This document shows, in pieces, positions 23,766-64,000 of a stretch of DNA of 64,000 bases. Where the stretch lies: positions 21,948,001 through 22,012,000 of the forward strand of contig CM074517.1 in assembly GCA_037379345.1 (NCBI GenBank). Reading direction: 5' to 3'. Both the position numbers and the translations under genes were made by a program. The notes beneath the pieces are model-generated. The model ran no database searches, was not told the DNA's origin, and worked only from the letters and a program-made list of their open reading frames with translations. This DNA comes from Perna viridis (taxonomy: Eukaryota). Within the stretch, counting starts at the first letter, position 1; each line of letters opens with the position of its first letter.

Positions 23766-26554
23766 CCAACATTAACACTCAAGTACGTTTATAATTGATG
23801 CAAACCTGATATGATCGGGAAATCCGCATTTATATGTACATACGATCATTTAGTAAACACAAGGAAGAGCTCCAATGCTGCAATCAACTAACATGAACTC
23901 CTATTAGACGATAGAACATACATTCAGAATTTGTCAAAAATATCAAATCTTACATTTATATGTGATCCGTACAACACAATTTTTGTTGTTATACATGTAT
24001 ATAATTTCTAACACAAGAATCAGTGAGATTTTTTTTTCTTCGTCATTTTGTATCTTGATGGGCTAAAGTAATCTTGTTGAAAAACGGTCATGCTTGTCCT
24101 ATACATTTATCTGAAATAGAAGGTATTTGGATTTTTTTTTTAATTTTTGCAGCTTAATGCGAGTAAAACTTCTGATGAACATAATAATTTACCAAATGAC
24201 CTTCATCAAAATGCGTGGGTCTAAACAAAATAGAGTCGTTGTCAAACCTATCACCTCCACTTAAGAAAATATATCGAACATTTACAAAATAGGTCAGTGA
24301 TATTAATAAATCGCTTTAATGTAATGCTTTGTCGTGGTAAGGACGTAAGGGTTTCGGAATGATAACTCGGATGTGTCCAATGTAACTATATAACATATTT
24401 TTCTAACCTCAATCACGTTACATCCGAATACCATTGCCATATATATGATCTCCTTAATTCGTTTTGTAGACATGCACTCTGTTCGAGATTACTTTCTCTG
24501 TTACTGCATATGAATATAACGAGAATGGATATGGTAAACATGTCAAAGACACAACAACCCCACCGGGATTAGGTAAATCGCCAATTTTAATGAGAAATTG
24601 ATGTCGTGAAAATTAACTTCCTTGTTCTACGTTATATAGAAGGAACAGTCCTTCTGCTACTAGTTTTATGTGTTAGATGCTACTCTCTTTAAACTAATTA
24701 TCTTTTATATATGTTTCGCAGCTGTCATGGTTTACATGCTTTTAAAATGTGGTGAGTTATAAAGGAACAACTTTCCCAATTCCTTTGGATATAATTGAAA
24801 TCTGGTATCCTTGATAACCCAGAATGATTTTTTTCAAGAAATCTTACTTTATTTCGGATTGTACCTGAAAAAAAGTTGAAATGAAAAAGAAAACTAATTG
24901 GTGTTCTTTTTCATCTCAGAAAAAACACAAATTCCAACAAAATGAACACTTATCAAAACTAAGAAGAATGAGAAACAAGGCCACTAAGCACTACCAGTAG
25001 TACTACATTTCAAAAGTCATGCTATGGTGCAAAAATATACAAACTTTTTTACTGCACTTACTGAACTTACGTATGCAATGATGCACAATTTGATTCGAGA
25101 TGAACGCGAACTCCAGGGTTAAGACATTAATCAAGACTTTATAAAACAAATATTGATGACACACTGGTACAGATAAGGTGTTACCCAAGATAAATTTTGA
25201 CAGTTCGCCGAAGGTTACCCATTGCAGATTGTTCGTATTTTAACCCAATGATCAATATTATATGATGTAGGTTTGACCTATTCACTATTTTGGAACACAT
25301 AAAAGCAGTGGGAATATGCACAATTCCGTAGTTTTTCTGATTTTTGTTTGTTCTTTGTTCCGATATTCAGGTAGGTAAATGAATTAGAATGCTAGCGATG
25401 TAATTAGAATTAAAAATGATAATTTGAGTGCTGGAATATAAAAACAACACAAAAATAATTCGGAATGATAAAACAAAAAGCACTCTGAAATAAAAAAAAA
25501 TTATATATAGCGAAATCTTTATTTATTTATTTTTTTTTGCCTGTGTATAGGTCATTCAGCTGAATTATAACAGGTATTTACTAGCTACACCTTAATTACC
25601 AAAACGGAATGTAAATATTTTTCGACAACTTATCATATTATTTTAGAGAAAGCTTTTATAAACTCATAAACCCTAACTTGGGTGCCACAAGTTACGACAT
25701 GAATTCGTTTCTTTCTTTTGAAATAACTATCAAACTAGCAACATCGACTTGCTTTTTCATTAAACATTTTCTGACTAATTGATGAGAGCAAGATAAAAAC
25801 AACAACAAGAAAAGCAAACAAACAGTAAAAAACTTAAAATTGAATGAAAAGTAAGATGATTTATTTCATACAAAGAGACTACTTAGGCCTGCAAGTTTTA
25901 GTCTTAAGCCGTCTTTGTGTTCATAGCCAATTGTGAGCTAATTTATAAAAAATCAAAAATAAAAAAAAACAAAAACAAAAAAAACAAAAAACACGGGCGA
26001 CTGTAAAGGTATTTCAGATGAAAGGATGTTTTTTTAAGCTTTTCTATGTTCGCGTGTTGGTGACCTCTTGTATCGTCTTGGAACTTCACACCCGAATTAA
26101 GGATATGCTCTACGTTGGGCGCGCAGTAGCAATATTTCAAATAAAATTCACTGTTGATATATTTAAAGACTTAGTGTGTTCATATTTTTTTAACTAGCTT
26201 CACTGGATGTTGATTAATCATGGCGGAGACAGTCCTTCCGTTAATTCTTATAACACATTAATAGTCTATCATCGATTTGAGCTTAGAGCTGTTGATTTAT
26301 GAATGCTAGTGTTATTATACCGCGTCTACTACCGCATAACTCAAATAGTCGTAAAAGTCAGTAATTTGGATTTGTGAAAAAAATAAAATAAAACGTCTAA
26401 AATTATTTTCTGAGTATTTCCCATAAAACTACTAATTCCGATTCTTGTATTCGAATGGTATTTATATTCCTTATATTCCACAAATGGCCCTTATTGTTAA
26501 TTATAAGTACATCGTTTGTTACTCGGAATATTTTGGTTTTATTTGTTTAACTTA

Positions 26555-30624: not shown

Positions 30625-33600
30625 TATCAACTTTCTGCGATTACAGAATCATATCTACAAGCCCAGGTGACGTAGTTTTGACTGCGTCCAGTGAGTTTGG
30701 TGCTCCAATAAAGACGCAGATTCACGGTGCATCAAGAGGTGTCTTGAACTACACCCAGTTTACGTCAGCTGACGGAAAAACATACCATGGGGCATGGACA
30801 GCTGCCGTCAATAATGATAAACAGTATATCCAAGTAAATAGACATAAAGTTTTATCCTTCTCCATACTTACTTACGTGTGTTGGTTTTCTTTTTTTTACC
30901 ATATTAAAGTTGTTGCTTTTTATATAATGCTTTCAACCAATACTTCAGTAAATTGCACTGGTTGATGAAAACACATGCAAATAGAGAACCACCGAATCAG
31001 AAAGCTTGTAACAATTCAAATTGAATTATAATAAAAATAAATACCAGTATGTGTGACATCAACGATTCAACAAGGCAGTATGTATTCTTTACTAAGATAA
31101 AGAATAATTTGGCCATTTCGGGACATTATACATATATATTGCCTAATTGATACTTATAGCCTGACATTAAATTCTCTTTTAACACAGATACAACTGAAAA
31201 AGGATTACAAAATAACTGGGGTTATAACACAAGGACGGAACGGATGCTGCCAGCAGTGGGTAACCAAATACGAGGTTTTCTATGGACAAGATTGTAACAG
31301 CTTCAAACTACTGGACAGTGGCAATGGATCTGTAAGAATTATAAAGGGATATGATGTAAAACACAAATTGAATGTCGGTTGATGAAGAATATGTAGCAAA
31401 ACCTGTCTTAACCAAATCTCTTCAGAGTGAATAATTTGCCTGGTTAAGATAGTTTTTTTTTTTGGTTAATATACTAGATTTAATAATTGATTGATTGATT
31501 GATTGTTGGGGGTTTAACGTCCGAGCAGCAATATTTCAGCTATATTCAGACGAAAATGGATGATAAATGGACATGAAATGGGATGATAAAATGAAAAATG
31601 GGATGGGACACAAGGACAATGGGGTCGACAAATTTTGATTGCCACTGGAAATAGGGAGAGGTGGGTATGGTCGGGCAATTTAGCCTCCTGTGGCGGAGCC
31701 CTATGGTTCATACTCCGGGAGTATACTACAGTAGGGTTCTGTGGTGCGAGGAACGTGGCATCTTTCCCAACACAGTGCACCCCTATGGTTTGCGGTCAGG
31801 TTTTCCGTATTACAGCCTGACAACCCCAGCGTGTAACACACCAGGGGTACCCCATTCCACCACCTGGGGCACACAACCCAGTTGCTCTGTGGGCAGAGCG
31901 CCCTAGCCCCCGGCTAAGGTTCTGAGCACTATTTAGTCCCCTTTTACGACAAGCTTAGCGCTGCTGCAGACCTATTCTTTTGACACCCGGACCTGCACGG
32001 GTCTACTAGATTTAAAATACATTGAAAATGATATGAATTATTTTCCGAAGATGTCTAGTTTAGACAGGATACTGCTTTATTTAGTGTTCGATAAAGACAG
32101 GATTAACTGTATTTTGATTTTAAAATTTCTGTATAACTTACAAAACAGTCGTGTACATGTTTTTTTTTAATAATTTCTGTGTCCACTCAATAATTGTTTC
32201 TTTGGTATTTCAGAATTTTTGACATAATTGTCATTATTTGTTGTTCAGGTTGTGTATACTATAGTTTGGTATCACTTTTTTTCGGAAAAAACGTGAATCT
32301 TAGAAAATCAAAATTACATATGTACACGCAGTTTCCGCGTGATATTCTGTCCACTCACGTTATATCGGTAAATTTCCTTCCATGAAGACGCCGACAAACA
32401 TGGTTAACAGTTACAATTTAAGCTTCAATTTTCCACTCTATGAATAATGGGTGCATTATTAATTTTACGTGGTACTCGTTCAAGTAAGATTAATTGATTA
32501 TTCGTGTTAACCCTTTAACCCTTTAGCATAAGTTCTATAAATTTCAGATTTTTAAAGGCAATACGGACGAAGATACTATGGTTACAAATATGTTCCCGAT
32601 ACCTGTGACTGCGGGATGTGTTCGAATCGTTCCAAAAGAGTGGAATGGTCAGATTTCGATGAGATGTGATATCATTGGCTGTCAAGCCCTAACGACGCCT
32701 TCGACAACGACAATTTCGTCTACCACTGTGATCACTTCAACAACACCTAAGACTACAACGTCATCAAACAGACCTATTATTCAAAAGACATTCTTACCAG
32801 GTAATTTGTAGAAAAGAATTTGTCAAAATAAACAATGAAAAACCTGTCCCTTAAAACGATCAATGGAACTTTATTATACCCTTTACTGCCTCCATATATG
32901 AAAAAGTGTTTTTCATTAAACAAACCAATACTGGTATGTCAGATGTATGTCAGATATCATAGTTTGTTGTTCACATTTATCTTTTCTCTAATTGATGCAT
33001 TTTGACGTACTTTCATATCGATAGTGACCACTTTAATATAAGAATCATTCTCAGTAAATTGCAATCTCCAGGTGCCTGTAGCAGTAACCTCTTGGCTGGC
33101 AACACCAATACAACTTCTACTATCACTGCATCTAGCATCAAAGATAAGGGGAGTGTGCTGGTCAGCTATGACCCAAAGAAGGCTTTTCTATTCTCAAAAG
33201 AAGATACAAACCACTCACAAACCAGATACATGGGTGGATGGAGCCCAAGCACATCAGACAAAAACTCGTTCATACAAGTAAGTAATATCAGTCAACTCAA
33301 CAAGAGTAAAGAGAAATCATAACGTTCCAACATTTGAAGATACATATTGTGGAATGCCTTTCTAGACGAAACAGAGCTTTCTCAGGGAATTGAATATTTG
33401 CTGCTCATTTACATCAAGTTTCGAGTCAAACGCCAATCATTTTTTTCTAATGTAATACCATTTAATTATTGTACATGTTTTTTTTATATATTTACAGTCA
33501 GTGTACGTTATCAACACTCCCAATATTATTTGCTTTATTGAGTTTGGGACGATTTTGTACTTTGTTTTCTGCACGTATCTGGCGTCGTCTTTGTCTCCTG

Positions 33601-36600
33601 CTTTGACTTTCAAATTTAAAATCATAGCGTGATGTTTACGCTTTAAGAACACCGACCTTTCAAAAATGGAAATATTTGCTTAACCGTCATATTTGCTCAT
33701 ATTTATCATTGACACTAGAGCAAAATTTTCTCCACAAAAAGCCGGCTAATGAGACATTGATTTCATGCCCGATCTGAATAAATCGCACATGATCAAGACA
33801 TATGTAGTTTCCAACTCAAGAAGAAAATATTCGTGCACTCGATTTGTTTTCATAACATATTTTAATCACTTTTCATGCAACGTGTTGGCGTTTATATCTA
33901 CCGTAATAAACCACAGTTTTGACCTTAGACTATTTTCACTCATGTGCAGTGCAAATAGGTCATTTTAGTTTTATCGTTTAACCAAAAAGATATTGTACTT
34001 ATTGTACTGATTAATTATTTGTAAACAAAAAATATTCAAATTTACCAATTCACTTATTTTTCCTTACTCTTATAGTAAAAATTGAAGTAGTTTCTGGCTG
34101 ATGTTTGTAGGTCATGACCAAGCATACCAATCAAAAACTGCCGGTTAAGCGAATCATTATGGCATATGATACAAAAATAGTACTTTTTCTCCCTACTTTT
34201 AGATGAATATTTCAAACCATTACTTCAAATCATATATGTAAAATGTGACTATTTAGACATAATGGTCAATAACTTACCAACATTGCAGATAAATTGTTGT
34301 GAGAATCAGTTCTACACCCCACGAGGTTTGCATTATTGTTTTTTCCCATGCATGGAGACATCTCATCATAGATAAAATACAACACACCACCTGCTCCACT
34401 TTTATACGAAGTTAAGGCTGTTATTTTGGGAAACAACTAGTTTCTGACAAAAGAGTGAAGAACTCGATTATATTTTATTCCATTTTCTTTGTCTGTCATG
34501 ATTGCTTCTTTAAATTCTAAAGTAAAAGTGTCAAACTAAACTCTGAATAAACTGATGACCTGTCCAAAAACATTCACTTATAAACCTGTATAAACCAAGA
34601 TGCCTTGATCAATTGAATAAATTCCTTCACACTCAAAGATGTTCAGTTTAGACAAGATTCACTCTAATTGTGTTGACAATATCATTTCAATGGAACAAGT
34701 AAATTGTTATTTTCTAGATCGATGCTCAANNNNNNNNNNNNNNNNNNNNNNNNNNNNNNNNNNNNNNNNNNNNNNNNNNNNNNNNNNNNNNNNNNNNNNN
34801 NNNNNNNNNNNNNNNNNNNNNNNNNNNNNNNNNNNNNNNNNNNNNNNNNNNNNNNNNNNNNNNNNNNNNNNNNNNNNNNNNNNNNNNNNNNNNNNNNNNN
34901 NNNNNNNNNNNNNNNNNNAAAAAAAACGATTTAGCTACGCTTTGCAACCTGAATAATCTGACCCCCAAGCGTGTTTTTTACCCTTATTTCCAGGGTACAT
35001 CTTTCAAATATATAATGCCATTTTATTTTTTTTAGAACTTGAAACAAAACTATTCATTTTCATTTGATTTTGTCTGGAATGTGAGACACTTTTGTTTCTT
35101 ACATCAATTATTTTGAAAGATAGTGACTTTAAGAGATGCAAGATTCTAATAAAACTCCAACCAAGAACAGCTGATGCTCAGATATAGGAAACCTTATCAT
35201 CTCCAAAACGGTTTCTTCATAAAATATATCAAGACGAGACGAGAAAGGAAACCATGTACCAAATAAATTCCACAAATAATTTCTCAAACATGTGTAAATT
35301 CTTTAAGCAGTCTGTTGTCATTTCCTTTTGTATATTCAGTTAACTACGACTATCATAACAGTTTTCTAGAAAATATTAATTTACAAGTTATTTGAGGAAA
35401 GAAAAAAAAGACTCAATCACGTGGTGCACGCTTTAAAACCTTAAAACAGGTTATTTTCAAATGTACATCTAGGGTATTGAGTATTCTTTAATTAATTTAT
35501 TATAGTGTTAAACATGTAACGAGCGGATCATCAATGGACAAAGACGTCACAGTCATAAAATCAAATACAGTTTATGCTATGAGAGAGTATTACTTATGAA
35601 ATTAAAATTACTTTTAATATCTCTTGCAATTACTCGTAAGTATTGAAACTTTGCTGTACCCTTGTCGTCTAAGATTCTGATATATTTTTGTCTTCCCATT
35701 GGTCGTGCGATTGTTTTATCATTTTTTTTAAAGTCACTTTTGAGAACAATTGAATCTTAATTATTATTCAGTCTTGAAGTGGTGTATTTATATTTTCTGA
35801 CAGAGTGAGTTTTGTTTTCTGAAGAAGAAGGTGTATCGTAAACGAGATATTTTCCTGCAGCTTATAGAGGACTTATATTTTTCTCTTCTTTTCTTGATTT
35901 GACTTTTCCTCCCATTTGCTTTGGTAATGACCCTTAAAAACAATCAACCAAACTCACAAACAAGCAAAAACAAAAAAATAAAAACCATTCGACAGCAGCA
36001 TTATCATCACCAAAAAAGTAAAACAATAACGAATCTAGTATAATTGAGAAGGTTATTATAAAAAAATCTTTCAACAACAAAATATTTCAAAATGTCTATG
36101 ATGAAATGCATAAAATCTATATACGAATTCAATTGGTGCAAAATAAAATTAGGGATGAAATCTCTATTTAGGTAGAATTTGCAGACCCCACTGTTGTACG
36201 TGGTATCGTAACTCAAGGCAAAAATGGATGCTGTGATAAGTGGGTCAAAAAATATAAAGTTTTCTACAGCGCTGACTGTAAAACATGGACGGCTTCGGGT
36301 GGTGGTGCAGGTCAGGTAAGTTATACAGCTGTTATAAAGAATTTGTTCTAATAAAAGATGTTACTAAATATATTTCCAACTGATTCAAGATTAAGACAGA
36401 TGTAAAAAGTTAAAACAACAAAAAGCTTATTGAAAAGAAATACAACTTAAGAAAGAAAATACGATATTCATGTCACTGTACATATAGATAATTCAGACCA
36501 TCATCAATCATTTGACACAGTCAAATATTCATTTACCACATTTTTGCGAGCAATGACTAAAATTTAAACCGTTGGTAATTAGAATCTTAAGCATTAAATG

Positions 36601-39600
36601 GCATGTACATACCAATCACTAATTTTTTATATAGTGTAAAATCTAAACAAGTGGATATTCTACCGTAAAAAAGCATATTAGTTGACTGCAGCCCAGCTGA
36701 TTAGAGTGATTTAAGCAGGTAGACCTAGGGTAAGGGACATAACTCATGAAATCAGTGATATGTTTGTATTATATTCAATTTCACCAAAGCCTCTCAAGCT
36801 TTCGTTTGAAGCAGAATAAAATGAATCCAAGTTAATTAGATGCTTATATACGATTTATGTAAAATACTGAATACAAACGTTCCAGTAATTTTTAAGAGTT
36901 GTGTCCCTTACCGTAGGTCTATCTCCTTAAACAATATGGAATCATAAAAGAATAAATGGTTAAAATATCGGCAAAACATATCCAAACGTCAGCAGTGGGA
37001 TGATTTCAAATACGTCAAAATCTAAAAACATGGCCTAAACGTGAGCACATGAAACATAGATGATCTACATACACATTGTCGCGAACCGAATAAATACTGA
37101 ACATAAGGGAAACAAGACGGCACACAATACAAACTAAAAAGCTAGCAATATGAACTCCAGCAAAAAACCGGTAGTGACATCAGGTGCTCTGAATGTGTAT
37201 AAATTTGAACACATTTAGTTTTTGTGTCTTCAGATATTTTCTGCGAATACTGATAAAGATACACCAAAAATCCAGATTCTTTTCTGTCCTCGTGCAGTCA
37301 AATGTATAAGAATTCAGCCAACAGAATGGAACAATGAGATAGGCATGCGATTCGAGTTAATTGGTTGTCCTATCGCAAAAGGCGGAGTCCCGGGTTTGAA
37401 TGTTTCTTATAACAACCAAGTGAATCATGCAACACAGCCGCTTTTGACTTCACCTCCGACAACCCCATCTACTACAGCAAAGCATGTTTCAGGCGCTAGC
37501 ACAGGTATTTAATATCATAATCAGAATCAGTTAATATACATACTTGTTTTGAATACTTGTTGAATACAACTAATATTTTTGATATGAACTTCCTACATAT
37601 TTGATTTTAATGCTGCTGGTAAGAGGTTACTCCTCCACACGTGTACAGCTTATCAAAAGTTACAATATATAAAACTGGTATATTTTGTATTTTAATGGAA
37701 ATGTCAACTGCATTTCTGACAAATGTTTTCTGAGAATTGTTTTTCGAACGACGTTGGTTGTTTTTTTTTTTCAACTTTAATTACCGAAAACGACATGTTT
37801 GTACTAGCTTTTTAAGTTACAATACACTCACGCTAAAATATTTGACTTAATAAAAAAAAAAGTTGTTGCAAAATGGACATTAGAATCACTTTAATGTTGA
37901 ATCATCCTATTCAGTATAAGATATAAAATACATACAGATTTAATAGTTTTCGTTCAGCAAACGTATAAAGGTATTAACAAAACAATTAAAAAATGTATAT
38001 AGTTCGAAATACATCATTTTTCAAAAGATGAGTCACGACTTATGCATTATTATGTCAACTCTACCTGAAAGTGAGAGATTCATGATAATTGTTGCATTAC
38101 TATTTTTATGGGAAGACATTTTTGTTGTCCAGTCCGTCTATTCGTTACACTATTGTATGAGATAGGACATGAATGAAATGTTGTAGTGCATATTACCAGG
38201 AAATTATGATAAACAGAATTTTGTTGGCGTTATACCCCTTTTAACTTCCAAACGTGGGATACATGCGTTTTTGAAGGCAAAATAAAACTTCAATTCATCA
38301 CTGCTGTTGTTTCAAGTGATAACCTATTAATATAAAACTAGCAAAAATAAGAAAAGTTGCATGAAACGGTTTATACAAATATTGTATATCAATCACTATG
38401 ATTCGACACAAATTTTAACTTTTATAACTGATTAATAAAAGATCAAATTTTGAAATTAACAAGATAATGACAGATTATGTTTTCAAAGACATATTCATTT
38501 ATTCTTTATCGAGGACAAAACTGCAATCAGAGTCTTTTTGCGCACCTTCCATACAAAAGCAGTAAAATTGTAATGACTTCAAGCACTGAACTTAAGCAAA
38601 GTGATCCAAGTCATGATTATAGTGCCGATAGAGGGCGCCTTCATGCCACTGACACGCTAGGAGTAAATAAACAACTTCATGGTGGTTGGTCAGCAGCAAC
38701 TCTTGATACGAACCAGTTTTTACAAGTATGTTTATTAGTATCATAAACCTTGCAGAAAAAAAAAACACATCACGGAATATTGACGGGGGTAGGGGTAGAC
38801 GATTTCTTCGGAACAAAATAATAATTTTCACTACTTTAGGGGTTAATTTTTTTCACATACATTGAATCAACTTGATAATTATATGTATAATTCAATTCAG
38901 TGTGATTAGAAAGATAATAGCATATGGTTTTTCTCTCAATTTAAAAAAAAATATTTATTTTCAAAAAATTTTGAGTCAAAATATTTATTTCAAAATTATT
39001 CATACTCCACCACCCTCAAAATCAATTGGTCACCTCATTATGCTCCGTTCTTACATTGTGACATTTGGTTATCGCTTCTATGGCTGTGAAAGTTACCTCC
39101 AAACTTATTTGTTAATTAAATTATAACCCAATTATCCTTGAGCTTTATAAACCGTTTTCTCTTAAAATCGACACAGGATTATAAAAAATGAACATTTAAG
39201 AAGAAATGGCAGGAGCCTAATTACTGATCAAATAATTTCTGAACCACTGCCAAGAGATCAAATAATTCATTACATTTCGACATAGACGTCAACTGCGAGT
39301 CGTTTTATACTTGAGTTTGTAGAAATAAATAAGTGCTCGCTAATATTTAGCAGATTCTTTTGAAATAATTAAGGCTTATGTTCATCAATAGAAACTAAAA
39401 TCAAACCCAATACGTATTTTAAAATATTCAAGATAACAATACTATTATTTAATAAAATTACTTTTTTGACGGCAAACTTATGATAATATAATAAAATCCT
39501 ATCAATATAAAATCAAAATAATTGATGATATTTTCTCTTGCTTATATGCTTAATGGATAACCACATATATTTGCAAATTTGATAAGGAGTTATGAATTTG

Positions 39601-42600
39601 ATTTGCTACACAGTTACAATTGGGCTACATCAAGCACCAAAACATTTATTCATCGGTGCACCTGGGTCCATCCTACTAGTTTTTAGTGGAGTCCGGATTG
39701 CTCTTTTAGTTTATTTTCTTATACGTTTTATTTTGGTTATATTAAATAACATATTTGTGTTCTCCCTATATAGTCTTTTATCCTTGGAATATATTTTTGT
39801 CTACCGTACGAAACTTGGCTCCTTGATAACTCTTTTCGTGGCCACTTTTTAACAGGAGAAAAATTATTGTCTTAGTTTAAGTTTACTCTATAGACCCTAA
39901 CGTGATAATCACGGGGAAGTCAGTGAACATGCTCAGATAACACTTCCACGAGGAAAAGTCTATTGTTCACTCCAAGTCCTACCTCGCGGAAATATATGTC
40001 ACGCATGCTCATCGAATATCCCCAGTTACCACAAAAGGGCTGATTGGTTACATTTATATCCCCTTTTTCTGTTTCTGTATTGCACTTTCATATAATATTT
40101 GTTTACATAACTTTAACTAAACGTAGACTGCATAACATTGATAATTTCAGGTGAAATTACCACATATCTCTACAGTTACTGGCATAATAACTCAAGGAAA
40201 AGATGGACCGGGTAAGGAATGGGTAACAAAATACAGAGTGTTATACAGCGATGATTGCAAGCAGTGGCACATGGTTAATCCTGTCGGTGGAGGGGTTAGT
40301 GTTAGTCTAGCAGATAGAGAGAAAATGTGATTCAAAAGATCAAAATAATTACTTGTTGTCATAGATACAATTAAGATCTAAAGCTACATAACTCTGTTTA
40401 TTGCAAACACGATCTCTCTTTGATGTGCATACCTAAATTAATATCCATTTTAAGGGAACTAAATTCTGAAACTATAATTATGTAGAGAGATTAGAAGTTT
40501 CTGATTATCGATTTAATGTCTTATGAAACTCGAGAAGGAACTACGTTATGTTTGTTAGATCCTGTAATTCCAGAACTACTTGGATGATAAAAGTACAATG
40601 TACTTTATAAGAAAGGAAGAAGTCATCCAAACGTTAACCTCTGAATGAATTCGTAACACTATTTAGTCATTTTCTGACTGAATGGAATGATTCCAAATAT
40701 ATAAATTGTAGATATATATTTTCATATTCTTTTGTGAATGTTTAAGGCATTAGTTTTAAGCAATAAGAAACCTACATACAAAACTGAAGTTTGTCATATT
40801 TTACGCTTAGTAACAACAACACTGAATTAATTCAAAATGACTCTCAACGAATATGCTATTTTTATTTCTCGAATAATTGAAATGAAGCCCTTAATTGTGT
40901 CCAGGTTTATTTTACAAAGTTGATGCATGTCTTCTGCGATAGAGTACAATTCTATATTTATTACTACAGTATATTCCTTGTTCTTTAGAAAGATCCATAA
41001 TAGTTCAAGAACCTTATGGATCAGTAGATCACTTTACAGGATGTGTTTTTCAGTCTGTAACTAGTCCGTTTACGGCTACCAAGTATCTAATATAAGAAGT
41101 TCCGAACTGATCAAATTTAGGGAGTAGTCCAAATGAATAGCAAAAAGGAAACTTCGTATAACAAATGGCATTATCAGGGTGAAAACAGCAAATTTCATAC
41201 CTAATCTTTGGGAAGTTAGGGAGATATATAAAGTTACTCTTCTTGGTTTTGTATACATAGAGATGAGACTATTTACATTTCATGTGGCCAAAATCCTCGA
41301 GTCGTCGATATCTTCTCAATGCATCCGTATATGCCAGAGACTGTACTTTTATTTGTCACTATTGTACAATAGGTTTACGTCTTTCATTTATTGTGATATC
41401 AGGACTTCAGTCTTTCATGAAAACGAATAATTTGGTCAAGTTATGTCCTTTGATAAAATATATATTTGTTCCAGAGCTTCAGAGGAAATTCTGATGAGTC
41501 AACTGAAGTGCTAAACATGTTCAGCCGTGAGGTGCAAGCTTTGTGTATCAAGATAAATCCTTCAGTATGGAACAACCACATATCTCTCAGAATGGACTTA
41601 ATAGGTTGCTTTAGTTTAAACAGCCACATGCCATCTGTTTCAAATTTAGCTATACCTACTACACAAGCATTCAAAAATCCGACGTTACCAGCTTCGACTG
41701 TCAGTAAATCTGCATCATCCACCAAACAACAAGTTTCATATTGTCATAATTCTTTGATTAATAACAAAACACTTGGTTCAGAAGTTAACTTGACTGCATC
41801 AAGTACTTTTCACAATCCAACTATACAATCGATGCCGGAAAGAGCACTTCTGGATACTAGTAAAATATTTCTTCAACAAGGTACAATGCTTGGTGGATGG
41901 TCACCTGCTGGAAATGGCCAAAACTACATTCAGGTATGAAATTGTTTTGTTTTATCTCAAATAGGATTGTTTTTGTTTTTGCTTCCTCTCGAATTTGCCT
42001 TGTTGAGAAAATGGCTGGCTTTATATGCCCCGGAAAATGGTATGCTCTATGTTTTGTCATATATCTACAATATATCTACAATATCTATACTTGCTACTCC
42101 AAGTTGTCAAAATTGTTCACACATAGTTTAAAGTGTCTAACAGATGAATAATTTGAACAAATGTTGTCTATTAATTTACAGACTCACCACCAACCTGCTT
42201 TCAATTACATCACGATCAATTTTGTCTTCTCAGGCGTCGTTTTCTGACGTGCAGATGATTCAAAGTGTAATTACCCAAGGAATGGACAAATCTCTACAAT
42301 GGGTTACAAAGTTTTCTATTTACTACAGTGAAGATTGTATTAACTGGCAACAGCTTAGAAACCCTAAGGTAATGTTATGTTAAACTCAAATCCAATGAAT
42401 GCTATCATATGTGCAAGGGAAATCTTTTGATACAGGATTCGAATGAAAGAGATCCAGAGATAACAACTAAAAGAAAATAGACATACACAACAAAGAACAT
42501 GGAAAAACAAACTTAACACACTCATAGAAACTAACCGGGCTCCACTTAAATGTGAGCACTGATATGGTGCACTGGTATGATTAGCGTTCCCTGTTTCTTT

Positions 42601-45600
42601 TTCTTTTTTTTTTTGAGATCAGTTGCTCGTAAAATGTCACATCCAGAGTAAACAAGAGGAAAACTAAGCAAAATTAACCATTCGGTTAAAATGCAGACGG
42701 ACCATAACGACCTACGATGATTATGACCATATAACTTTTGTAGTGGTGACTTTAATCTTGTATTTAAAACACAACGCTGTTCCAGAAGACATGTTTTAAA
42801 GAACCTTACATGTTTTGAAAATTAAGCGTATATTCTACAAGCTTTGGCATAAGGTATGCTGTAGACTTGTTTCAACGAGTAACTTCTTACGTCTTATCAG
42901 TATTTGAACAGAATACTTAGGAGGTTCAAATACAAAGTCCTTTAATGATATGTTAAATCGTTTCCCAATATTCATTACGGGAAAAGAACCTCAATGTCAT
43001 AGCGATATTTCGAATTTGTACTAAAATAAATAAATCGGTAAATAATATGTTACAACTGGTTCCGGTAAGACAGCTCTAGCTACCGGAATGGTGAATATTT
43101 ACCGGATCATATTATCATAAAACATAACAATCACATAAATATTGCACATTTTGGTATGTTGTACACACGTTTCAAGGGGTAACTTTTCATCAGGAGCCTT
43201 TTTATACAAATACTTGAGTCGTACTCCATCTAAGAATCATGCAAAATATTATTCATGGTTGGAAAGCCTACATATTTTTTATTTTTTGATAAATTTGTTT
43301 AAAATGCTTAAGTAAACAGATAGTAACATGTGGTATTTCATATAACCCCTGTTCATGAGAGATACCTAATTTATATAGAATGTACTGTAGAATTCAAAAT
43401 TAAGGGAGATATGCTGTAAGTGACAATAAAATACAATAGAAAAATATTTAGCCTTTTTGGAAGTATGCTAAGACTGCTACTTGATAAGTTACAGTTTCAG
43501 GTTCGCAGTTGGAATCCAAATTCAGAAAGGAAAGAATTCATTGCGTTTGTCGTATTGTTTAGTCATGTTTTTTTTCCTGTCCATTGATCTCTAAAGTAAG
43601 AAGATATGAACCTGACTTTATAGTGTCTCACCAACCTTTATCGCATGTTATAACATATGTCATTGCTTAAATTTAGCAAATAAATTCTCACAGGAGAGCA
43701 TGACAAATAAATCCTGTATCTGTTAGTTGCTGTCAACGCAATATGTGAACTTTAACGGTTTTGATATTTAACATGTAAATTTAGATTCTTAGATCAAATC
43801 CATATGTTGTTGTTAAGTACGAAATACCTTAGTCATAATTGTTTGTAAAGAAATTGTAAGGTATCAGTCTTGTATTGAATACTCTTTAGCGGATATACGT
43901 CAAAATATGGAGGCTAAAATATAGTGCACATCTTATTTATAATTTTTTTTATTTGCCTTTTTCTACCTTTTGCATTTTTCATCAAAAGTACATGGTAAAT
44001 AACAAGCTTTGACATAAACACTTGTTTTTCAGGATAAACAGTATGTTCAGGAGAAATAATGCTTCAGACATAAGGTCTATTTTATGAACTCAAATAAAGA
44101 TTGAAAGTAGGAAATATCTGTTTCCTTTTCTATTTTGAGCAAGATTACTTTTAACATATCATTACGTTTGTTGAAGCATGTGGCAAATATGTCTGGATAA
44201 AAAAAACACATGTAATCTGAAAATTTCGTAAGAAATTTACGACAGTTGCATGGAGACTTAGTGACACTAAGTTCCGATACAACGTTCTTAAATTTCTCAC
44301 GAAATTTTCATTACAAACTATAATAAAGTATCTCAACGTACTTCTCAAAGTTTTTTTTCTACTAGCTGTCGCCTAATTAAGTCTGGATTAATTGAAAAAC
44401 CATACATTCTGAAACACTATAACTATAACTGAAAAGATCCAAATGATTTAAATGCAGTGTCTATAAACACAGCTTGTTGATTGCATATGTCAACTCGACG
44501 GAAAAAAGTTTATATCCTTTGCATTATTGCATTGCATTATTGCCTATGTTATCACCCTGAGACATTTTTATTTCGAACCGAGGGACGATATAAACTGAGG
44601 ACTGGAAAATATTAAGATTACTTTTAACATATGTCTGGATAAAAAAAATCTGTAATCTGAAAATGGCGTATTCCACACATTTTCAATACCAGTAATTTAA
44701 AGGCTAGTAGATAGAGTGAGTGGTCTATTTGATCTTACCGCCTTAAATTATCTATCTCGTGCTTGTGTCGTGATACTTAAAACATAATCAGCAATTTGTC
44801 CTGACAATTCATGTTAAATTGACTGTTTCGTCGCCTATATACAGAAAAGGGTCTCACTATGTTTGATGTCAGTAAATCTCACGAGAGAGACGGTGCCATG
44901 TTATATACCCTGCTTAACCTTTTTATGCCTTGAGGGGAACATAACATACTTTTATTAGCATATGCAAAATTGGTTGTTTTTTTTATAATATATGTCATAA
45001 ATACAGAGATGTATTACTTAGTTACAGTTATTGAGTTGTAATGTTGAGTAAATCATTTCCAAAAAAATCCATATTCGAATTATACTGGTCTGTATTTTTA
45101 ACACCAAAGAAGCGAAATATTTCATACAATATTTGATTAAAAGAAGTTGAATTATTTCGCCCTTTTAGATCTTTTAAAATGTTAATGTAACTAAATGTAT
45201 TCTTTTGCAGGAATTTCAGGCCAACAACGATGACAATACTAAAGTCCATAATAAATTAGGTTGCCCGATTTTTGCAAAGTGCATTAGAATTTATCCGACA
45301 GGTTTTCATAACTATACAGGGCTTCGATTTGATCTAATTGGATGTAACATCAAAGGTAGACTTCTTGACAGTGATATCATTTACGACTCCGGAAGCGATT
45401 TTAACTAGAAACAATCACGGTTATCGTTGTTCATTGAACTATCATAACGTATACAATTATGCTCAATCTATTAGTGGATATAAAAGAGGCATTCAAAGCT
45501 GCGGAACAAAAACTGAAAACAAAAGAATTGAAGATAAAACATATACCAACAAGAAAAAACAAACAACATTTATAAACTTAACAAAAATAAATGTAAAAGA

Positions 45601-48600
45601 CTAAATAATACCAAAGAACACAGAACATATATGTTGTATGGGAAAGCTTTCTCTCTTCTCACAAACAATTATAGATATTACATAGATACATTAATTGATT
45701 TATATAATTCAGATATTCAGAAATAATGGACTCCAGAGGACAAGCTGATAAGACATTACACATACGGAAAACACTAAAGTAGATAAAAACAAGCACAAAC
45801 AAAATGAAAAGAGTAAAACAAAAAATACAAATACACAGAAAACCAAAGAAGAGTACTCCGATTTTTCGTTAGTAATGATTGGTCACTTATTTTCACTGGT
45901 TATTCGTTTTAAATCGGAATGAGCTTACGATAAAATAATTTTCATAGAGAGAATTTAATAAATAAACAGCAATCCTAACAATTTTTCCAAGGGGAAATTG
46001 GTAGGCCCATCAGTTAAAAAACCAATTGCAAGACAAACGCACAATATGTTTCTGTCATTTTAATGCTACAGGCCATGTTTGCTGTTAGTATCAATACAAT
46101 TTATTTTAAAATAACGTTTAATATATCAGTGTAATGCGTACATACCAAAATTTGTTCGGCATGAAATGGTATTCAAAACTTGTTTTGTTTGATGCTTTTG
46201 TCTTAAATTTCAGATAACAAGAATTCCGCGATTGGCTTAAAAAATCCTTCAACAACAGTACCGACGTTATCATCTGTGTCAACCACACAAAATTCAATTT
46301 CATCGACAATATCACCTTCACCTTCACCGATAAGCGTTTCAACTAAAACTACACAGGCAACATCGTCTGTACCTTTTTCACCGACAAAGTCAACACCGAA
46401 AACGTCAATGACATCATCAATAGTGACATCGTCAACAACAAAAGCAACTAAATTTTTCACCTCTACAGTGACAACGCCATCTTCAACAATATCAGTGACA
46501 ACTCCAACAACATCAAAAACAACACTTTCAACAACAAAAACTCCTACTCATATTACTCACAACGTACTTCCGACTGGCAAAGCATCAAACTATAATTCTA
46601 AGGATCCTATAGATTGCAAAAGAGCTTTACTAATGTTTACATGTTTACATCCTATAGTAAGAAGGCATTGTTTTTATTCCTGTAATCCAAAACAAGCAGT
46701 TATCTCAGCAATTTTTAGTAGCACTTCATCACCTGTGTCAGCTAGTTCCTCTATTACTCAGTCAAGGGGGCAAGTCAATAGTGTACACTATTCTAGTGCT
46801 ATGTCTTTGGCATCTTCGCAAACACCGTCTATCGTATCGTCAGTATTGACACAGTATTCTCCTTTAGTGTCTTCTCAACAGTTAGTAATTCAGTCTCATA
46901 CATCGCATGGTTTTTCAACACCTTTGTCACCGTCTTATTCTACAATCGCTATGAAATCATACTCACCCAGTCAATCTACTTCACTACCCGTAAAACCGTC
47001 AGCCAGTGCACCTACAACGCACCAATCTACTATCACATTGTCAGCGACCCCATCTTCTCTAATTCAAACGTCATCATCTATACCGAGTATGACTTCTTCT
47101 ACTATGATCGTAACTACACCATTGCATCATTCCCATATAGTCTTACCTACTGGACAAGCATCAATATACAGTCCTCTTGATCCTTTAGACTGTAAACGTT
47201 CACTGTTGAAGTTTTCATGTAGCTTATCAATTATTGCCAAGCACTGCCCAAACTCTTGTTCTAAATCTTCAAGCATCGTCATCTCATATTCTCCTAGTTC
47301 AAGCGTGGTAGCTTCAGCTCAAAGCTCAAAACCTACAAACAGTATCAGTAATGTTGCTTCTAGTTCGAGTATACACACAAGTTCCAAACCTTTCAATAGT
47401 ATAAGCTCTAGTTTATTTGTACCAGTTCCTACTTCAAGCTTGTATACTTCAAACATGCTTAGCCGTAGTGTTTTTAGTACAAATATAAAATCTGGTAGTC
47501 CATATTTCACACAAACACACCCTTTGTCATCTTCTTCTACTTTTTCAGCCCAGCTTCTGTATATGTCGTCAGACAGACTGTCAAGATTAACTGCCCAAAC
47601 CTTAACTTCAAACACAAACATACCTTCATTATCAATTAATTCAATTTCTACTTTGAACCAACAGCTATCTTCTACAAAACCTTTGATTTCACAGTTTTTC
47701 AGCTCTTCGCCTCACCAAAATACGGCATTATATTCGCGTCAAGCAGCATCTCAACTTTCGAATGTTCCAATAATCTCGAGTTCTTCCAATGCCCAGCCAA
47801 AAAGTAGCCATATCTCTTTATCTACTGTTTTGTCAACAAATGGGCCTGGAAGCATACTATCCTCTATCAGCAAGCCTCTATCTTCGCTTGCGCAACTAAA
47901 AGGTATATCCGTGTCTTATTCACTGAACTCTTTGCCTATTCAGACTACTGTTAGCAGCTCCAGTGTCTCATCTAATGTCATTTCTTCATCGCTATCAAAA
48001 CCACGTTTGCCTTCATTTAGTTTCACTTCATCCAACGTTCAATCTGTATCATCAATTCTATCTTCCTCTCAAGTTGCTTCTACGAATAGCCTACCACCAA
48101 CAACGTTTGGTGTGCCGTCTTCCTTAAGTAATTTGTTGTTGTCGAAAAACATTCAAACCTCACAAGTGGCCAGTTCTATGTCTTCGTCGTCTTACTCACA
48201 AAGAAATTTGATTACCAGTACCACATTGTCAACGCAATCTGGAGTTTTGGGATCACAATCATTCCACGGTATTTCACAAATATCTGGATTAGCGTCGCCT
48301 TCGTCAAGCGCTTCTGTCTCTACCCTTGTATCTGTTAGCTCTGATATTATCTCTTCTTTGTTGAATAGTTATTCAAATATATTACCAAGCTATGCAGTTT
48401 CAACAAATAGCGTGTCCGCTTCGACAATCAACACGCCATACATCAACACAAGGTCTTCTAAATCGTCACTAGTATCTGATCTCTCATCACCACTTATTTC
48501 AAATTTATCAACACTTCATTCTATTGCTCCCTCAACATATCCTACTTTATCACCCTCTGGAAAAAATCAGCCTTTCTTCTCAAGTTCTGCTAATGGGATG

Positions 48601-50160
48601 CTTAGTTCCCCCTCTATCAAACCGTCCACTTCTTCGCAAATTCAAAACGTACAATCTTCAATATTTAGTAGTTTAATTCCTAGCTCTGATGCTATGAACA
48701 GTGCAATTTCACCACATTTCAGCCAATCTTCTGTAATTCTACAGTCTTCAAATCCTTCAACAAGCTTGCTGTCTCTAAGTTCTGTTATCTCTACTACTAA
48801 CCTTATATCAAATTTCCAATTGCCAACGACACTTTATAGTTACACGTCTGCTCCATCGACTTCAAGTACAAGTTCTTCTGGAATGAATAGCAAGTTGTTA
48901 TCATCTTCGTTTTTCTCTTTGGTAAGTTCATCTTCAGTGCATTCATCTATGCAAATGCATGTGTCTTCTATGCAAAAGATATCAATTAAGCCCCTTTTTA
49001 ATTCTGCTGTTGCTACGACTCAAGTTTCTACTGATATTAGTCCTTCAACCACTGCCACTCCATTTCCATCAATTTTGACAACTCAACTTTCCAATGTTAT
49101 ATCTTCTAAACCATCACTACTCCCCATTGCTTTATCTACTGATTCATATATTTCTTTATATCCTAGTCTTCAGCCTTCACAAAACCTTTATCTGTCGTCA
49201 GCACAACCTGGAATATCATCCTTATTTAGCAGCTTAACAAACTCAAGTCAATTTCCGTACACCTTGTCATTTTCATCTCACCTAGTCTCTCACTCTGCAC
49301 CACCAAGTTCACATTCCTCTTCAATTAGTATTGCATCGAACAGCCTACTTACACCACCATCTAAGTCGTCTTTTTCTCACCCACTAAGTACTGGAATACC
49401 TTCTTCAACGGACTCCCTGACTTCCTTGTATGGATCAATTCTATCAACCAAACCAGCAGCTTATGCTTCTACCCCCCAACATATACCTCTGTCTGCTGCT
49501 GTACAACAACCCAGTGGTCAGCTGTCTGTTACTTGTGTTCCTATCTCGTCAATGTATGCGACACCATCAAGAAGCCTTATGACAGATAGTTTGCTTTTGA
49601 TGGGCATATCAAGTGCCAGTATGTCAATGAGTATAGTACAAACACCCAGTAGCAATGTACAGTTTCAAACAAACTCCCCTTCAGTAAGTGGGATTTCATC
49701 GACTATGCTTGGATCATCACTGATTATAGCAAGTTCTTGCTATACTTTTACAGTTTTTCCAACAAGCGGTGTTAACGTCTACTTGAACTCTTCTCAAACT
49801 CTCTTAACATCAGCGTTACCAACCAGCTTTACTTCAGCAAATCAGATGTCAACATCAGTGGGAAATTTGGTTTCTAGTCCTTTTCCTACCAGACAAGTAA
49901 CTTCAATGCAAACATCTTCGCTTCCTTCACAGACTACAACTACAAGATTGCCTGTGACACATGTAGTTATTCCAACCGGTGTGGCTGGAATTTATGACAA
50001 CAGGGATCCAGTAGATTGTAGACGTTCTCTCACAATGTTTTCATGTACCAATCCAATTGTTGCAAGACATTGTCATTATTCATGCGCATCCCATCCCGCC
50101 AGTCGACCAGACATCTTTGCTGTTCCAAGAGGAAGTAGTGCTGGGAAAGGTAAAAAATAA
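30625..50160 (+). CDS. Large, probably secreted protein: four discoidin (F5/8 type C) domains, Ser/Thr-rich mucin-like region and three four-Cys ShKT-like modules (~2,100 aa)
   Basis: Exons 30625-30833, 31188-31331, 32548-32800, 33072-33277, 36172-36315, 37234-37504, 38514-38725, 40151-40294, 41475-41933, 42234-42368, 45211-45355, 46214-50149/50160, with consistent phases. Each domain shows F5/8C hallmarks: TASS, G(G/A)W, (Y/F)(I/L)Q, (I/V)TQG, WVxK(Y/F), FxxNxD, RIxPxxW, MRxxLIGC. The CDS either stops at 50160 or splices to 50549-50574 (ANRDLVNG*). Confidence 0.88.
31393..32111. mobile_element. Old MITE (AAACCTGTC...GACAGGATTAACTGTA termini) interrupted by the 31484-32003 retroposon
   Basis: Imperfect inverted termini at ~31393-31410 and ~32092-32111; the two halves rejoin at the duplicated TACTAGATTTAA. 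Confidence 0.5.
31484..32003 (-). mobile_element. 520-bp non-coding retroposon (SINE-like) with (AATC)n tail and 12-bp TSD
   Basis: TSD TACTAGATTTAA at 31472-31483 and 32004-32015. The - strand 3' end reads ATAGCTGAAATATTGCTGCTCGGACGTTAAACCCCCAACAATCAATCAATC. GC content is much higher than the flanks and several hairpins are present. Confidence 0.85.
34730..34918. other. Assembly gap (run of N) inside an intron of the discoidin gene
   Basis: 189 consecutive N. Confidence 0.99.
39652..39840 (+). mobile_element. Diverged Penelope-like 3'-end fragment
   Basis: CGGTGCACCTGGGTCCAT...AGTTTTTAGTGGAGTCCG...CTTGGCTCCTTGATAACTCTTT is the reverse complement of the 1206-1440 repeat. Confidence 0.65.
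42455..42780 (-). mobile_element. Diverged Penelope-like 3'-end fragment including the RT C-terminus
   Basis: ACATACACAACAAAGAACAT... and GACCATATAACTTTTGTAGTGGTGACTTTAATCTTGTA align with 53010-53360. Confidence 0.6.
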
Positions 50161-52324
50161 AAAGACAGATGTATGTAATCAAAGCAATTCTGACAACGAT
50201 TTTATTTCTCTTCCGTTTATATGATCTAGCAAGAATGCGAACGTCAACTAGCATATTACATTAAAACAAATCAAATTCACATTAAAAGATATTTACTCAA
50301 TATTTACCGATTATAATTATCTTTCAAAAACCCTTAAGTTTGTTTATGTGGCTGATTTTTAATATTTAACAACTTTTTATTACAATTGTTCACCATACAC
50401 TACATACTACATGGCGAAGATGGACTTTATCTATATGTTACTTTCAAGCGGATAAAAAAAAAGAAACACCTTATGATTCTTCATTTATTAATATCTTATG
50501 TTCCGCTCTGGTTTTCAACTGTTATTTTGTTTCAACATTTATTTTCAGCCAACAGAGATCTTGTAAATGGATGATTAAGTGCAAGTGAATAGTTAGGTTG
50601 TGAAAATGTAAATGGAGATTGAACTAGAAACATTTCAATCTGTGATGTAAAAATTCTAGAAATATACGAATCCACATATTTACTTGTTAAGGCTTCCTTT
50701 TTTGTTTTTTCAACATATGTGAAAATATATGATACCCTCGATTTGCACTTTACTGTTTATGAACATATATCTCTACAGTAAATAATAAAAAAATATATTT
50801 ATTGTTTATATCTAGAGACACCCCTGTTCGTTACTACAACACAGTTGTTGGTGAAACACGTCCAAGAAAAACTGATTAAAAATGTTGAATCTTTGCGCAA
50901 TTCTTACATAAAAACCAGTCTTTACTTTAAAAAAAAATACATTGATGATGTGATATGTATATTACAGTAGTTCTCGCAAATGAAATCACGCTTAGAGGCA
51001 TATTGTCAAAGTGTCAAAGTTCCCATAGATATCACAAACGTAATAATCACAAGCCTGTTATACTCGGGAAAATGCGTACAACTGCAAATATTATTCAGAT
51101 TCATTTTAATGATTATTTATCAAAAATATATTACGGTTGCATTATCTCACTGTTTATCATGTTACTTCCTTTGAGAAAATATATCTTCTCTTAACTACAA
51201 ATGACCCGTTGAGTGGTTATATTGCAATAGTTACAAAACTGGAAATAAATAATTCATTCAGTTATATAACAACACATCGCTAAAAATAAATATGCGAATT
51301 TTAGACATATAAAGGTCAATTATTAAATAATACGAAAAGAAGTATTACTCTTATGTTGTTTTTTAAATAACACCTTATTTCCGTACAAAATAATTTAAGC
51401 AACAAATTGTATTTATTTTATTTGTTTTATTTTTTCATTATAATTTGTGTACCATATTTACTGTCCTTCGAAAACACATATCAGTAAAAAATCGATAAAT
51501 ACACACACATATATATAGTGTTCGGTAATTTTGTTATTACTCTTATTTACCCTTACCTTGAAATATCATAAAATGTTTCTTCGAATAACTGCCACCGTTA
51601 ACACAATATTATAAATGTTTAAACAGTTTGGCTCTTTGTTTGTTAATTGCTTCTGTAATGACCTTCGCAGCAAAGTAAACAAAGGACAAAGCCTCTTTTA
51701 GTGTATGAGGACCAAATCAAATGTCTTTTATGTTTCATGGCCTTTCTGTCCTCTGACGTATGTTTGAGACTACATCATGGAACGTGCTTTATCAGTGATA
51801 TATTTTGATAAGAAACTAATTTAATTAAAGCATGAATATGTTCCGAATATCGTTACCTACTACAATACATTTGTAGCAAAGAAAATTAACAACAACATAA
51901 CAATGAACAACAACACACAAACAAAAACAAAACAAAATAAAATGAAAGAAACAAACATGATAAAGAATTTAAAATTGTAGTGATCTTAAGTGCCATTTCA
52001 GACACTACCACGTGTAGAGGTGATTTTTGAAGTAAAAAAAGAACATTCGATGTTTGTTCGTTCTAAGTATGCTATATTTTACTAAACGATAGCACTTTCG
52101 GTAAATATTTATTTATTTTAGAACGCAATCTTTTCATCTTCCACTTAAATCAGGAAAGATAACTCTTGCAAAGTGACAACTGTATGTATGATCTATATAA
52201 TTTTAATCTAAAATGCATATTTACCGAATGAAAAATAAGGCTGGACGTCTGGAGTGTGACTTTTTCTGAATAGAAACAAAAGTGAATTTCATGAAACTCC
52301 ACGAAAAATCCATTTTCATTTTTC

Positions 52325-53880: not shown

Positions 53881-53959
53881 AGCATTTTGTAAACATCTTC
53901 TGTATATTTGGAAGGTGATTTGGAATTATTTCTTACCAAACATACGTGACTTACAAAGT

Positions 53960-63758: not shown

Positions 63759-64000
63759 GTAAGTTGACAAAGCCTTCACAAAGTTTTTTAATTTTCAAGT
63801 AAACATGACTTGCTCGCTTTTTTTCAAAATAGTTAATTATACCCCTACTACACTTCTAAAGTGGCGGTATGTAGTAATAGTTTTGAATTTAACTGCAAAT
63901 TATACATTGCCCAAGTTATCATTACCAAAATATCTCTTTGTTTAAAAGGGAAAATTTTGATAAATCTCATTTTAACATAAGTTAACAACTACGATAATGC

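Follow-up and report, generated by a model that had tools for sequence, protein, structure and literature searches.

Introduction

Two kinds of described protein come closest to the gene reported here. Sea-urchin Nectin and sea-star Sfp1 are secreted proteins of adhesive secretions that carry discoidin (F5/8C) domains, in tandem in Nectin. The excerpted account of Nectin gives six such domains, said to bind galactose and N-acetylglucosamine (Gal/GlcNAc; PMC7037938). Nectin has a mass of ~108 kDa, which leaves no room for a giant stalk, and Sfp1 is built with other domain types. The mucins Tc-MUC-1 to 5 of Toxocara canis have a Ser/Thr core, no anchor and small flanking Cys modules of the ShKT type (PMC3611597, excerpt); as described there, they are only 176-316 residues long, with six-Cys modules at their ends and no discoidin head. 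Here, we describe a gene in a 64,000-nucleotide stretch of AT-rich animal DNA from the green mussel Perna viridis (GCA_037379345.1, CM074517.1, positions 21,948,001 to 22,012,000; hereafter, the window), in which four discoidin domains are joined to a 138-kDa Ser-rich stalk with three four-Cys modules. By analogy, its product looks like a cross of Nectin and the Toxocara ShKT mucins, a member of neither, and would extend two known kinds, discoidin adhesins and ShK-flanked mucins.

The reading that we favor, with a probability of roughly 0.55, is a secreted, multivalent, sugar-binding, lectin-like mucin tether in mucus or a surface coat. Filter-feeding bivalves rely on mucus for feeding, for the sorting of particles and as their first line of defence, and its structural glycoproteins are, to our knowledge, poorly catalogued. 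The gene is a conserved, apparently single-copy candidate for such a glycoprotein, and three of its features are of interest: a subtype of discoidin domain with an F-lectin-like Cys-Cys loop, a module of four Cys that scores below every Pfam cut-off, and odd Cys that are conserved. As all of its parts have known cousins and its function is predicted only, it builds on known designs rather than overturning them.

One gene joins the discoidin head to the stalk

The gene has 14 exons, joined over 13 canonical GT-AG introns into a single open frame (coding 25316-50574) with a predicted product of 2,112 residues. A first-pass annotation of the window had placed it at 30625..50160, a span that has to be widened at both ends, as coding starts upstream at 25316 and the spliced stop ends at 50574. 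Its features are as follows.

25224..25370, plus strand: exon 1, 5' leader and signal-peptide-like part; ATG at 25316, 18 codons, phase-1 donor
30625..32685, plus strand: F5/8C domain 1 (A type); exons 30625-30833, 31188-31331 and the start of 32548-32800
31245..31250, plus strand: vicinal Cys-Cys of domain 1 (residues 108-109), in the loop after TQG
32686..32800, plus strand: linker 1, Thr-rich, from the translation
33072..37371, plus strand: F5/8C domain 2 (B type); exons 33072-33277, 36172-36315 and the start of 37234-37504
36229-36234, plus strand: vicinal Cys-Cys of domain 2, in the loop after TQG
37372..37504, plus strand: linker 2, Thr/Pro/Ser-rich, from the translation
38514..41612, plus strand: F5/8C domain 3 (A type); exons 38514-38725, 40151-40294 and the start of 41475-41933
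41613..41741, plus strand: linker 3, from the translation; shares its exon with the end of domain 3 and the start of domain 4
41742..45348, plus strand: F5/8C domain 4 (B type); exons 41475-41933 (3' part), 42234-42368 and 45211-45355
46214..50149, plus strand: stalk exon, 3,936 nt, non-repetitive; covered end to end, domain 4 exons included, by one contig of run X5
46555..46692, plus strand: four-Cys module 1, a conserved N-terminal extension followed by C-x8-C-x8-C-x3-C; Pfam Crisp E 0.024, below the cut-off
47131..47268, plus strand: four-Cys module 2; no Pfam match alone, 74% identity to Mytilus
49534..49740, plus strand: two lone stalk Cys (residues 1900 and 1968), at the same positions in the Mytilus sequences P0003, P0004 and P0020
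49957..50094, plus strand: four-Cys module 3; Pfam Crisp E 0.0095, modeled as three helices with a predicted local distance difference test (pLDDT) score of 74
50549..50818, plus strand: last exon, with eight further codons, stop at 50572-50574, 3' untranslated region and AATAAA at 50784

The 11 exons from 30625 to 45355 and the large exon from 46214 share one frame across GT-AG borders, and spliced contigs from three studies join them. The labeling of runs X1, X3 and X5 as RNA is a guess, and the evidence rests instead on the spliced joints: 11 of the 13 junctions are bridged in the contig pieces displayed, while for those at 30833-31188 and 36315-37234 the only indication is unlisted record letters whose length fits. 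Specifically, an X3 contig of 2,048 nt connects domain 1 with domain 4, an X5 contig of 4,618 nt extends from domain 4 across the entire stalk to the last exon, and the junction of head and stalk (45355-46214) is displayed in both X1 and X5. The locus thus encodes one gene, as the first-pass annotation had proposed, and not separate genes for the discoidin exons and the stalk. Contigs of run X15 continue unspliced through introns.

Both ends of the gene lie outside the span first proposed. Upstream, 12 candidate rows combined an ATG, a hydrophobic core and a phase-1 donor, and among them 25316-25370 had the top hydropathy and a strong donor; it is the most hydrophobic stretch of the protein in a hydropathy scan, and an X3 contig joins it to exon 2 (30625). 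The Mytilus orthologue likewise opens with a hydrophobic leader. Downstream, the stop noted earlier (50158-50160) sits just inside a 399-nt GT-AG intron that follows 50149 and is removed in contigs of all three contig runs (X1, X3 and X5), whose 3' ends fall at 50740-50818. One low-depth X3 contig falls within this intron, so a retained form or a trace of DNA exists; the C-terminus is short and polar in both versions. The hydropathy scan found neither a transmembrane helix, in agreement with the first reading, nor a hydrophobic C-terminal or glycosylphosphatidylinositol signal (best 19-residue value outside the N-terminus, 1.35). With its signal-peptide-like leader, the product is likely secreted and unanchored.

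The discoidin head

The four tandem F5/8C domains and their Thr/Ser-rich linkers, already recognized in the first reading, were confirmed. PF00754 matches 8 of the 11 exons that encode the domains, with E values that include 2.7e-9 and 9.9e-6 on two exons of domain 1, 4.4e-8 in domain 2, 2.1e-7 and 0.0014 in domain 3, and 6.9e-6 and 0.0062 in domain 4. The middle exons of domains 1, 2 and 3 individually exceed the cut-off of 28.2 bits (37.7, 33.7 and 31.5 bits, respectively), and that of domain 4, as a fragment, scores 26.6 bits. The Mytilus orthologue P0003 has four PF00754 stretches (269 bits), and identity to Mytilus is 63, 68, 62 and 70% for domains 1 to 4. All four domains have a pair of terminal Cys and share another pair; an odd Cys is added in domain 2 (Cys355, 37285-37287) and in domain 4 (Cys762, 45262-45264), and recurs in Mytilus, in scallop and in the second discoidin domain of Pinctada.

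Among themselves, the four domains share 32-39% pairwise identity. In a small, unrooted FastTree tree of 11 domains, domain 1 groups with domain 3 (support 0.88) and domain 2 with domain 4 (0.91), the latter group adjoining the scallop domain and the second Pinctada domain. The simplest reading of this pattern is that the four domains arose via duplication of an A-B pair. Adjacent Cys are confined to two of the four, domains 1 and 2. The same Cys-Cys loop occurs in proteins of Mytilus, Pinctada, Pecten and Mizuhopecten and at three other loci of the Perna viridis genome. It is missing from all 16 other discoidin proteins displayed; the six-domain Diadema protein P0007 (27% identity) lacks it.

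The stalk

The single exon of ~3.9 kb anticipated by the first reading lies within a 1,317-codon open frame, whereas the longest frame in 200 base shuffles was 237 codons. Its non-repetitive character also held, as we found no long tandem repeat and only six short repeat rows (longest, 58 nt). The stalk has 1,322 residues (S 28%, T 11%, P 8%; S+T 39%, P 7.7%), no Glu and a pI of 9.9. Its identity to Mytilus is only 21-31%, versus 62-70% for the domains and 67-74% for the modules, and the composition of the Mytilus stalks is nearly equal to its own. Within the species, the 20 allele differences listed for the stalk comprise 13 non-synonymous, 7 synonymous and no nonsense changes (pN/pS 0.63), with 54 further differences over the whole stretch lying outside these 20. 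Low identity, similar make-up and residue-changing alleles without stops suggest that the stalk is kept for composition and length.

The four-Cys modules

The three modules have 46 residues each, with 52-57% identity to the first, 20 invariant columns and four Cys. They had been called ShK-like, a description of which only part survives. ShKT requires six Cys and a CxxxCxxC end (PMC3611597; 10.1101/2020.05.28.121442). We rejected an assignment to ShKT/SXC (PF01549) in view of the four Cys in all three window modules and in all pattern matches of relatives, and Pfam ShK had no match in the window modules, its score in the scallop sequence P0038 being E 2.9. What remains is a resemblance below threshold to the C-terminal domain of the cysteine-rich secretory proteins (CRISPs). 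No match to Pfam Crisp passes the cut-off (12.8-20.8 bits versus 27), the profile reaches E 5.7e-4 over the whole stalk, and the module spacing fits positions 24-52 of its 55-position profile. The module model has three short helices (pLDDT 74; predicted template modeling score, 0.48), and its top Foldseek rows are the CRISP natrin at a non-significant E of 4.2-5.0. Like the CRISP C-terminal/ShKT domain, the modules have the core spacing and, in the model, three short helices; unlike it, they lack the first and last Cys and have a conserved N-terminal extension there instead. As the two weak lines, Crisp profile and CRISP fold match, agree, descent from a ShK/CRISP core via loss of the outer Cys pair is likely, if unproven.

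An adjacent Lys-Tyr pair, the functional dyad of the ShK toxin, is absent from modules 1-3; the excerpted source of that dyad also describes a protein of limpet mucus whose ShKT domain has no such dyad, a precedent for non-toxic modules (PMC7333891). We found no backing for four-Cys ShK-like peptides in Nematostella in the literature excerpts consulted. A predicted complex of two module copies, in which no alignment was used, scored 0.01 and gives no verdict. A wide VIA search with the module model returned nothing at Z of at least 2, a profile search of PDB sequences gave no matches and the ESM Atlas held no usable match, none of which is proof of novelty.

A module profile run against 1.84 billion representatives gave 12 matches. 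Besides those from the same species, they comprise three from Mytilus, one from Pecten, three fragments and four spurious repeats. We set aside the last (P0030, P0031, P0033 and P0034), which are repetitive and lack the Cys pattern, and P0025 and P0035, near-identical to the window, are not independent of it. Within the Perna viridis genome, all three candidates were the gene's own modules, so the module is found only here and is apparently single-copy; there was none in the 90 kb around three other discoidin loci.

Relatives in other bivalves

The first reading considered the architecture possibly undescribed and matched it to no named family. The literature that we searched, including by six accession or gene ids, yielded nothing on this protein, which may nonetheless appear with a generic label in the supplementary lists of proteomes from mussel mucus, byssus and shell. 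The architecture itself, however, is already in RefSeq/GenBank as Mytilus models, all labeled uncharacterized. The M. galloprovincialis LOC143063566 models (XP_076091891.1 and XP_076091893.1) join head and stalk, and partial models exist for M. edulis (CAG2210019.1), M. coruscus and M. californianus (XP_052092526.1). The Mytilus gene is a probable orthologue: its models share the leader, four F5/8C domains in the same order, the same Cys, a Ser-rich stalk, three modules at matching places and a short last segment. They differ in a fourth, diverged module after a Thr/Lys repeat, which has no counterpart in the window, in short tandem repeats within the stalk and in a predicted isoform without ~960 stalk residues. 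Two Mytilus isoforms, P0002 and P0003, have their first 1,386 and last 8 residues in common, so stalk length may vary by splicing.

Beyond mussels, the scallop proteins P0032 (Pecten maximus XP_033758080.1) and P0038 (Mizuhopecten yessoensis) share a B-type Cys-Cys discoidin domain, a Thr linker and the module, but are short, probably partial and generically labeled (neuropilin-2-like, carboxypeptidase-like X2). The presence of a module after a Cys-Cys discoidin domain in both suggests that the link predates the mussel-scallop split. Pinctada imbricata P0011 has an A+B pair of Cys-Cys discoidin domains with Thr-rich linkers; it differs in its fusion to a kinesin and in showing no module. Its combination of a kinesin motor with two Cys-Cys discoidin domains is probably a merged gene model. 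Word-based protein searches limited to 269-2000, 766-2440 and 141-450 residues found no oyster, clam or snail relatives, a weak negative given that method and those lengths.

A proposed secreted mucin tether and its alternatives

We rank the tether ahead of a byssal glue, a matrix scaffold, an opsonin, a toxin precursor and an artefact, and the mechanism that we infer is as follows. The leader would route the protein into the secretory pathway, and an O-glycosylated, extended stalk would hold the 84-kDa head off the gel or epithelium. The discoidin loops would bind glycans: domains 1 and 2 by means of Arg/Lys and a vicinal-disulfide platform, F-lectin-like but of other specificity, with domains 3 and 4 binding other ligands. 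The four-Cys knots could act as disulfide-stapled helical interaction or spacing nodes, not as released toxins, and the odd Cys of domains 2 and 4 and the lone stalk Cys could pair within or between chains, maybe networking molecules.

The suggestion of sugar binding comes from F-type lectins, which share with these domains a related beta-sandwich and a tandem arrangement. In eel agglutinin, according to the excerpted text, a disulfide between contiguous Cys touches the fucose ring beside a His/Arg/Arg triad (PMC5712786). We compared the discoidin exons, by HHalign, with an F-type-lectin-like profile from 30 of the 55 PF22633 loci of the same genome (18 usable exons, 12 with Cys-Cys). The alignment is gapless over 35 columns (E 0.0015, probability 17%) and pairs Arg with Arg and Cys-Cys with Cys-Cys, with Ala opposite His; in domain 1, the vicinal Cys-Cys and the preceding Arg are in register. 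What appears to be newly seen, then, is a faint correspondence of the vicinal Cys-Cys of domains 1 and 2 with the fucose-contacting Cys-Cys of F-type lectins. If so, the two domains carry half of an F-lectin-like site, a hint of sugar binding and no more.

Several observations weigh against the tether. With respect to the head, the HHalign match is weak and in part driven by the cysteines themselves, and the F-type motif HX24RXDX4(R/K) occurs in none of the 11 domains tested, His and the second Arg being without counterpart. A predicted fold of the scallop relative P0032, used as a proxy for the window's protein, is closest to neuropilin b1 and the factor VIII/V C2 domains (Z 22-23; for neuropilin-1 b1, Z 22.9, rmsd 1.8, 147 residues aligned), whose ligands are peptides and lipids, and scores lower against CBM32 (Z 16) and F-lectin (Z 13.8). 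The absent motif and the nearest folds together place the domains outside the F-type lectins, in the coagulation-factor branch, and membership was rejected; the 'lectin' of the first-pass annotation thus keeps the Cys-Cys register in its favor and, as the motif is missing, is a property that we infer. With respect to the stalk, 26% of residues are L/I/V/F/M, and it is unusually hydrophobic and basic for a mucin. Under half of its 100-residue windows (520 of 1,223) pass the mucin Pro/Thr/Ser cut-off, which we take to be S+T of at least 40% and P of at least 5%. Gel-forming mucins of the MUC2/5 type carry vWD/C8/TIL and cystine-knot domains, and Pfam found none of these in the window exons or P0003, only F5/8C and weak Crisp. 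The stalk, which the first reading had called Ser/Thr/Pro-rich and mucin-like, fits that description in its overall composition and departs from it in its hydrophobic share, missing Glu and failing windows; it appears mucin-like in a broad sense, with O-glycosylation presumed from its make-up. With respect to the transcripts, Logan contigs are not single molecules, and the raw RNA run X24 (~19% read) is nearly without reads on the stalk, which argues that expression is restricted rather than general.

A more specific version of the tether is tentative and less likely than not. In this version, the gene would represent a bivalve lectin-mucin family, in which discoidin domains of the coagulation-factor type gained a vicinal-disulfide sugar platform independently of F-type lectins and sit on a mucin stalk stapled by a new four-Cys, ShK-derived knot. 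The protein would capture and sort glycan-coated particles or microbes in gill and mantle mucus, with the odd Cys cross-linking the gel.

The alternative that survives best, though we consider it unlikely, is that the protein is a structural cohesive or adhesive component of byssus or foot secretion, comparable to Nectin or Sfp1 in echinoderm glues, which also contain discoidin domains. Mussels, scallops and the pearl oyster have a byssus habit, and the named relatives all come from these byssus-forming groups; the lack of oyster and clam relatives may, however, reflect search sensitivity. '4C-repeat' proteins are described from scallop byssus (PMC9168380, excerpt), a possible parallel. On the other hand, the main text of a green-mussel foot transcriptome paper contains none of 'discoidin', 'FA58C', 'coagulation factor', 'mucin' and 'ShK' (PMC7971044), and the one supplement of a Mytilus byssogenesis paper contains none of six terms (PMC12607631), although either may use other labels. 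The stalk also has only 31 Tyr in 1,322 residues.

Next, and improbable in our estimate, is a scaffold of extracellular matrix, periostracum or shell matrix, in which the discoidin domains would bind collagen or proteins as in DDR and neuropilin. The top sequence and fold matches, to neuropilin, CASPR2, DDR and retinoschisin domains, are of this kind, and the conserved odd Cys could make inter-chain bonds, but their identity is only 25-31%, and they are generic to the fold. Mineral-binding proteins are acidic, unlike the basic and Glu-free stalk.

Ranked after the scaffold, and also doubtful, is a role in immunity, in which a soluble, lactadherin-like recognition protein or opsonin would bind phosphatidylserine or the surfaces of microbes. 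Matches to the discoidin domains of lactadherin and factors V/VIII have E values of 1e-14 to 1e-24, and tandem heads would lend avidity. In lactadherin/MFG-E8, however, EGF domains with RGD precede the discoidin pair, and the product has no EGF match and no RGD; the Trp of all four domains lie at shared motif positions, with none in the loop after TQG. Further, the module gene is apparently single-copy, unlike expanded immune families of bivalves.

We give very little credence to a precursor that releases ShK-like, ion-channel-active peptides: the Crisp match over the stalk and the non-significant natrin match (E 4.2) would suit it, but the modules have four Cys, no CxxxCxxC end and no Lys-Tyr pair in any of the three, sit buried within the stalk and come without an R-x-K/R-R site in the window model and two orthologues. 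Just as remote is the notion that two separate genes, or a chance open frame, were merged in the first reading, for which one can cite split or partial database models (P0001, P0004, P0020 and P0026) and weak constraint on the listed stalk alleles, against the junction displayed in X1 and X5, the RefSeq models that join head and stalk and the shuffle maximum.

Other loci and the window neighborhood

The three other Cys-Cys discoidin loci of the genome lie on two contigs. At L017:3588-5656 (G000:C5, ~9.93 Mb), exons for a discoidin domain, in which Cys-Cys likewise sits in a longer loop, come after a SUEL lectin exon (E 2.3e-18) that contains a Thr run. The loci L010-L011 (G000:C13, ~9.24 Mb) and L014 (G000:C5, ~2.07 Mb) are two more such genes, with one discoidin domain each within 40 kb and a Thr-rich exon downstream of the C5 gene. 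On the opposite strand near the C13 gene, L009:6299-9262 (plus strand) is a 988-codon frame with 38% Ser+Thr, a mucin-like exon.

Within the window itself, high-copy interspersed repeats lie in introns and upstream of exon 2 (28400-29000, 31500-32000, 36700-37000 and 43200-43950), and a run of N at 34730-34918, in the intron between two domain 2 exons, leaves the coding sequence untouched. Downstream, a high-copy repeat with very deep contig cover (52930-54250) includes a broken reverse-transcriptase-like frame, recognized by eye and without a Pfam match (53392-53925, minus strand). Three other genes lie on the plus strand. The first (4478-13174) has several exons, among them one with an RRM, one with an MTPAP-like palm (E 6.2e-9) and a long final one, and it resembles a gene for a TUT1/Star-PAP-type nucleotidyltransferase. 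The second (20447-22138) is a single-exon TRIM-like gene with a RING (E 4.6e-7), a coiled coil and a weak NHL repeat. The third (59047-63764) encodes a Rhodopsin-family G protein-coupled receptor, with 7tm_1 on all three exons tested (E 6e-4 to 3e-6), which continues past the window end and is, judging from its motifs, presumably an opsin.

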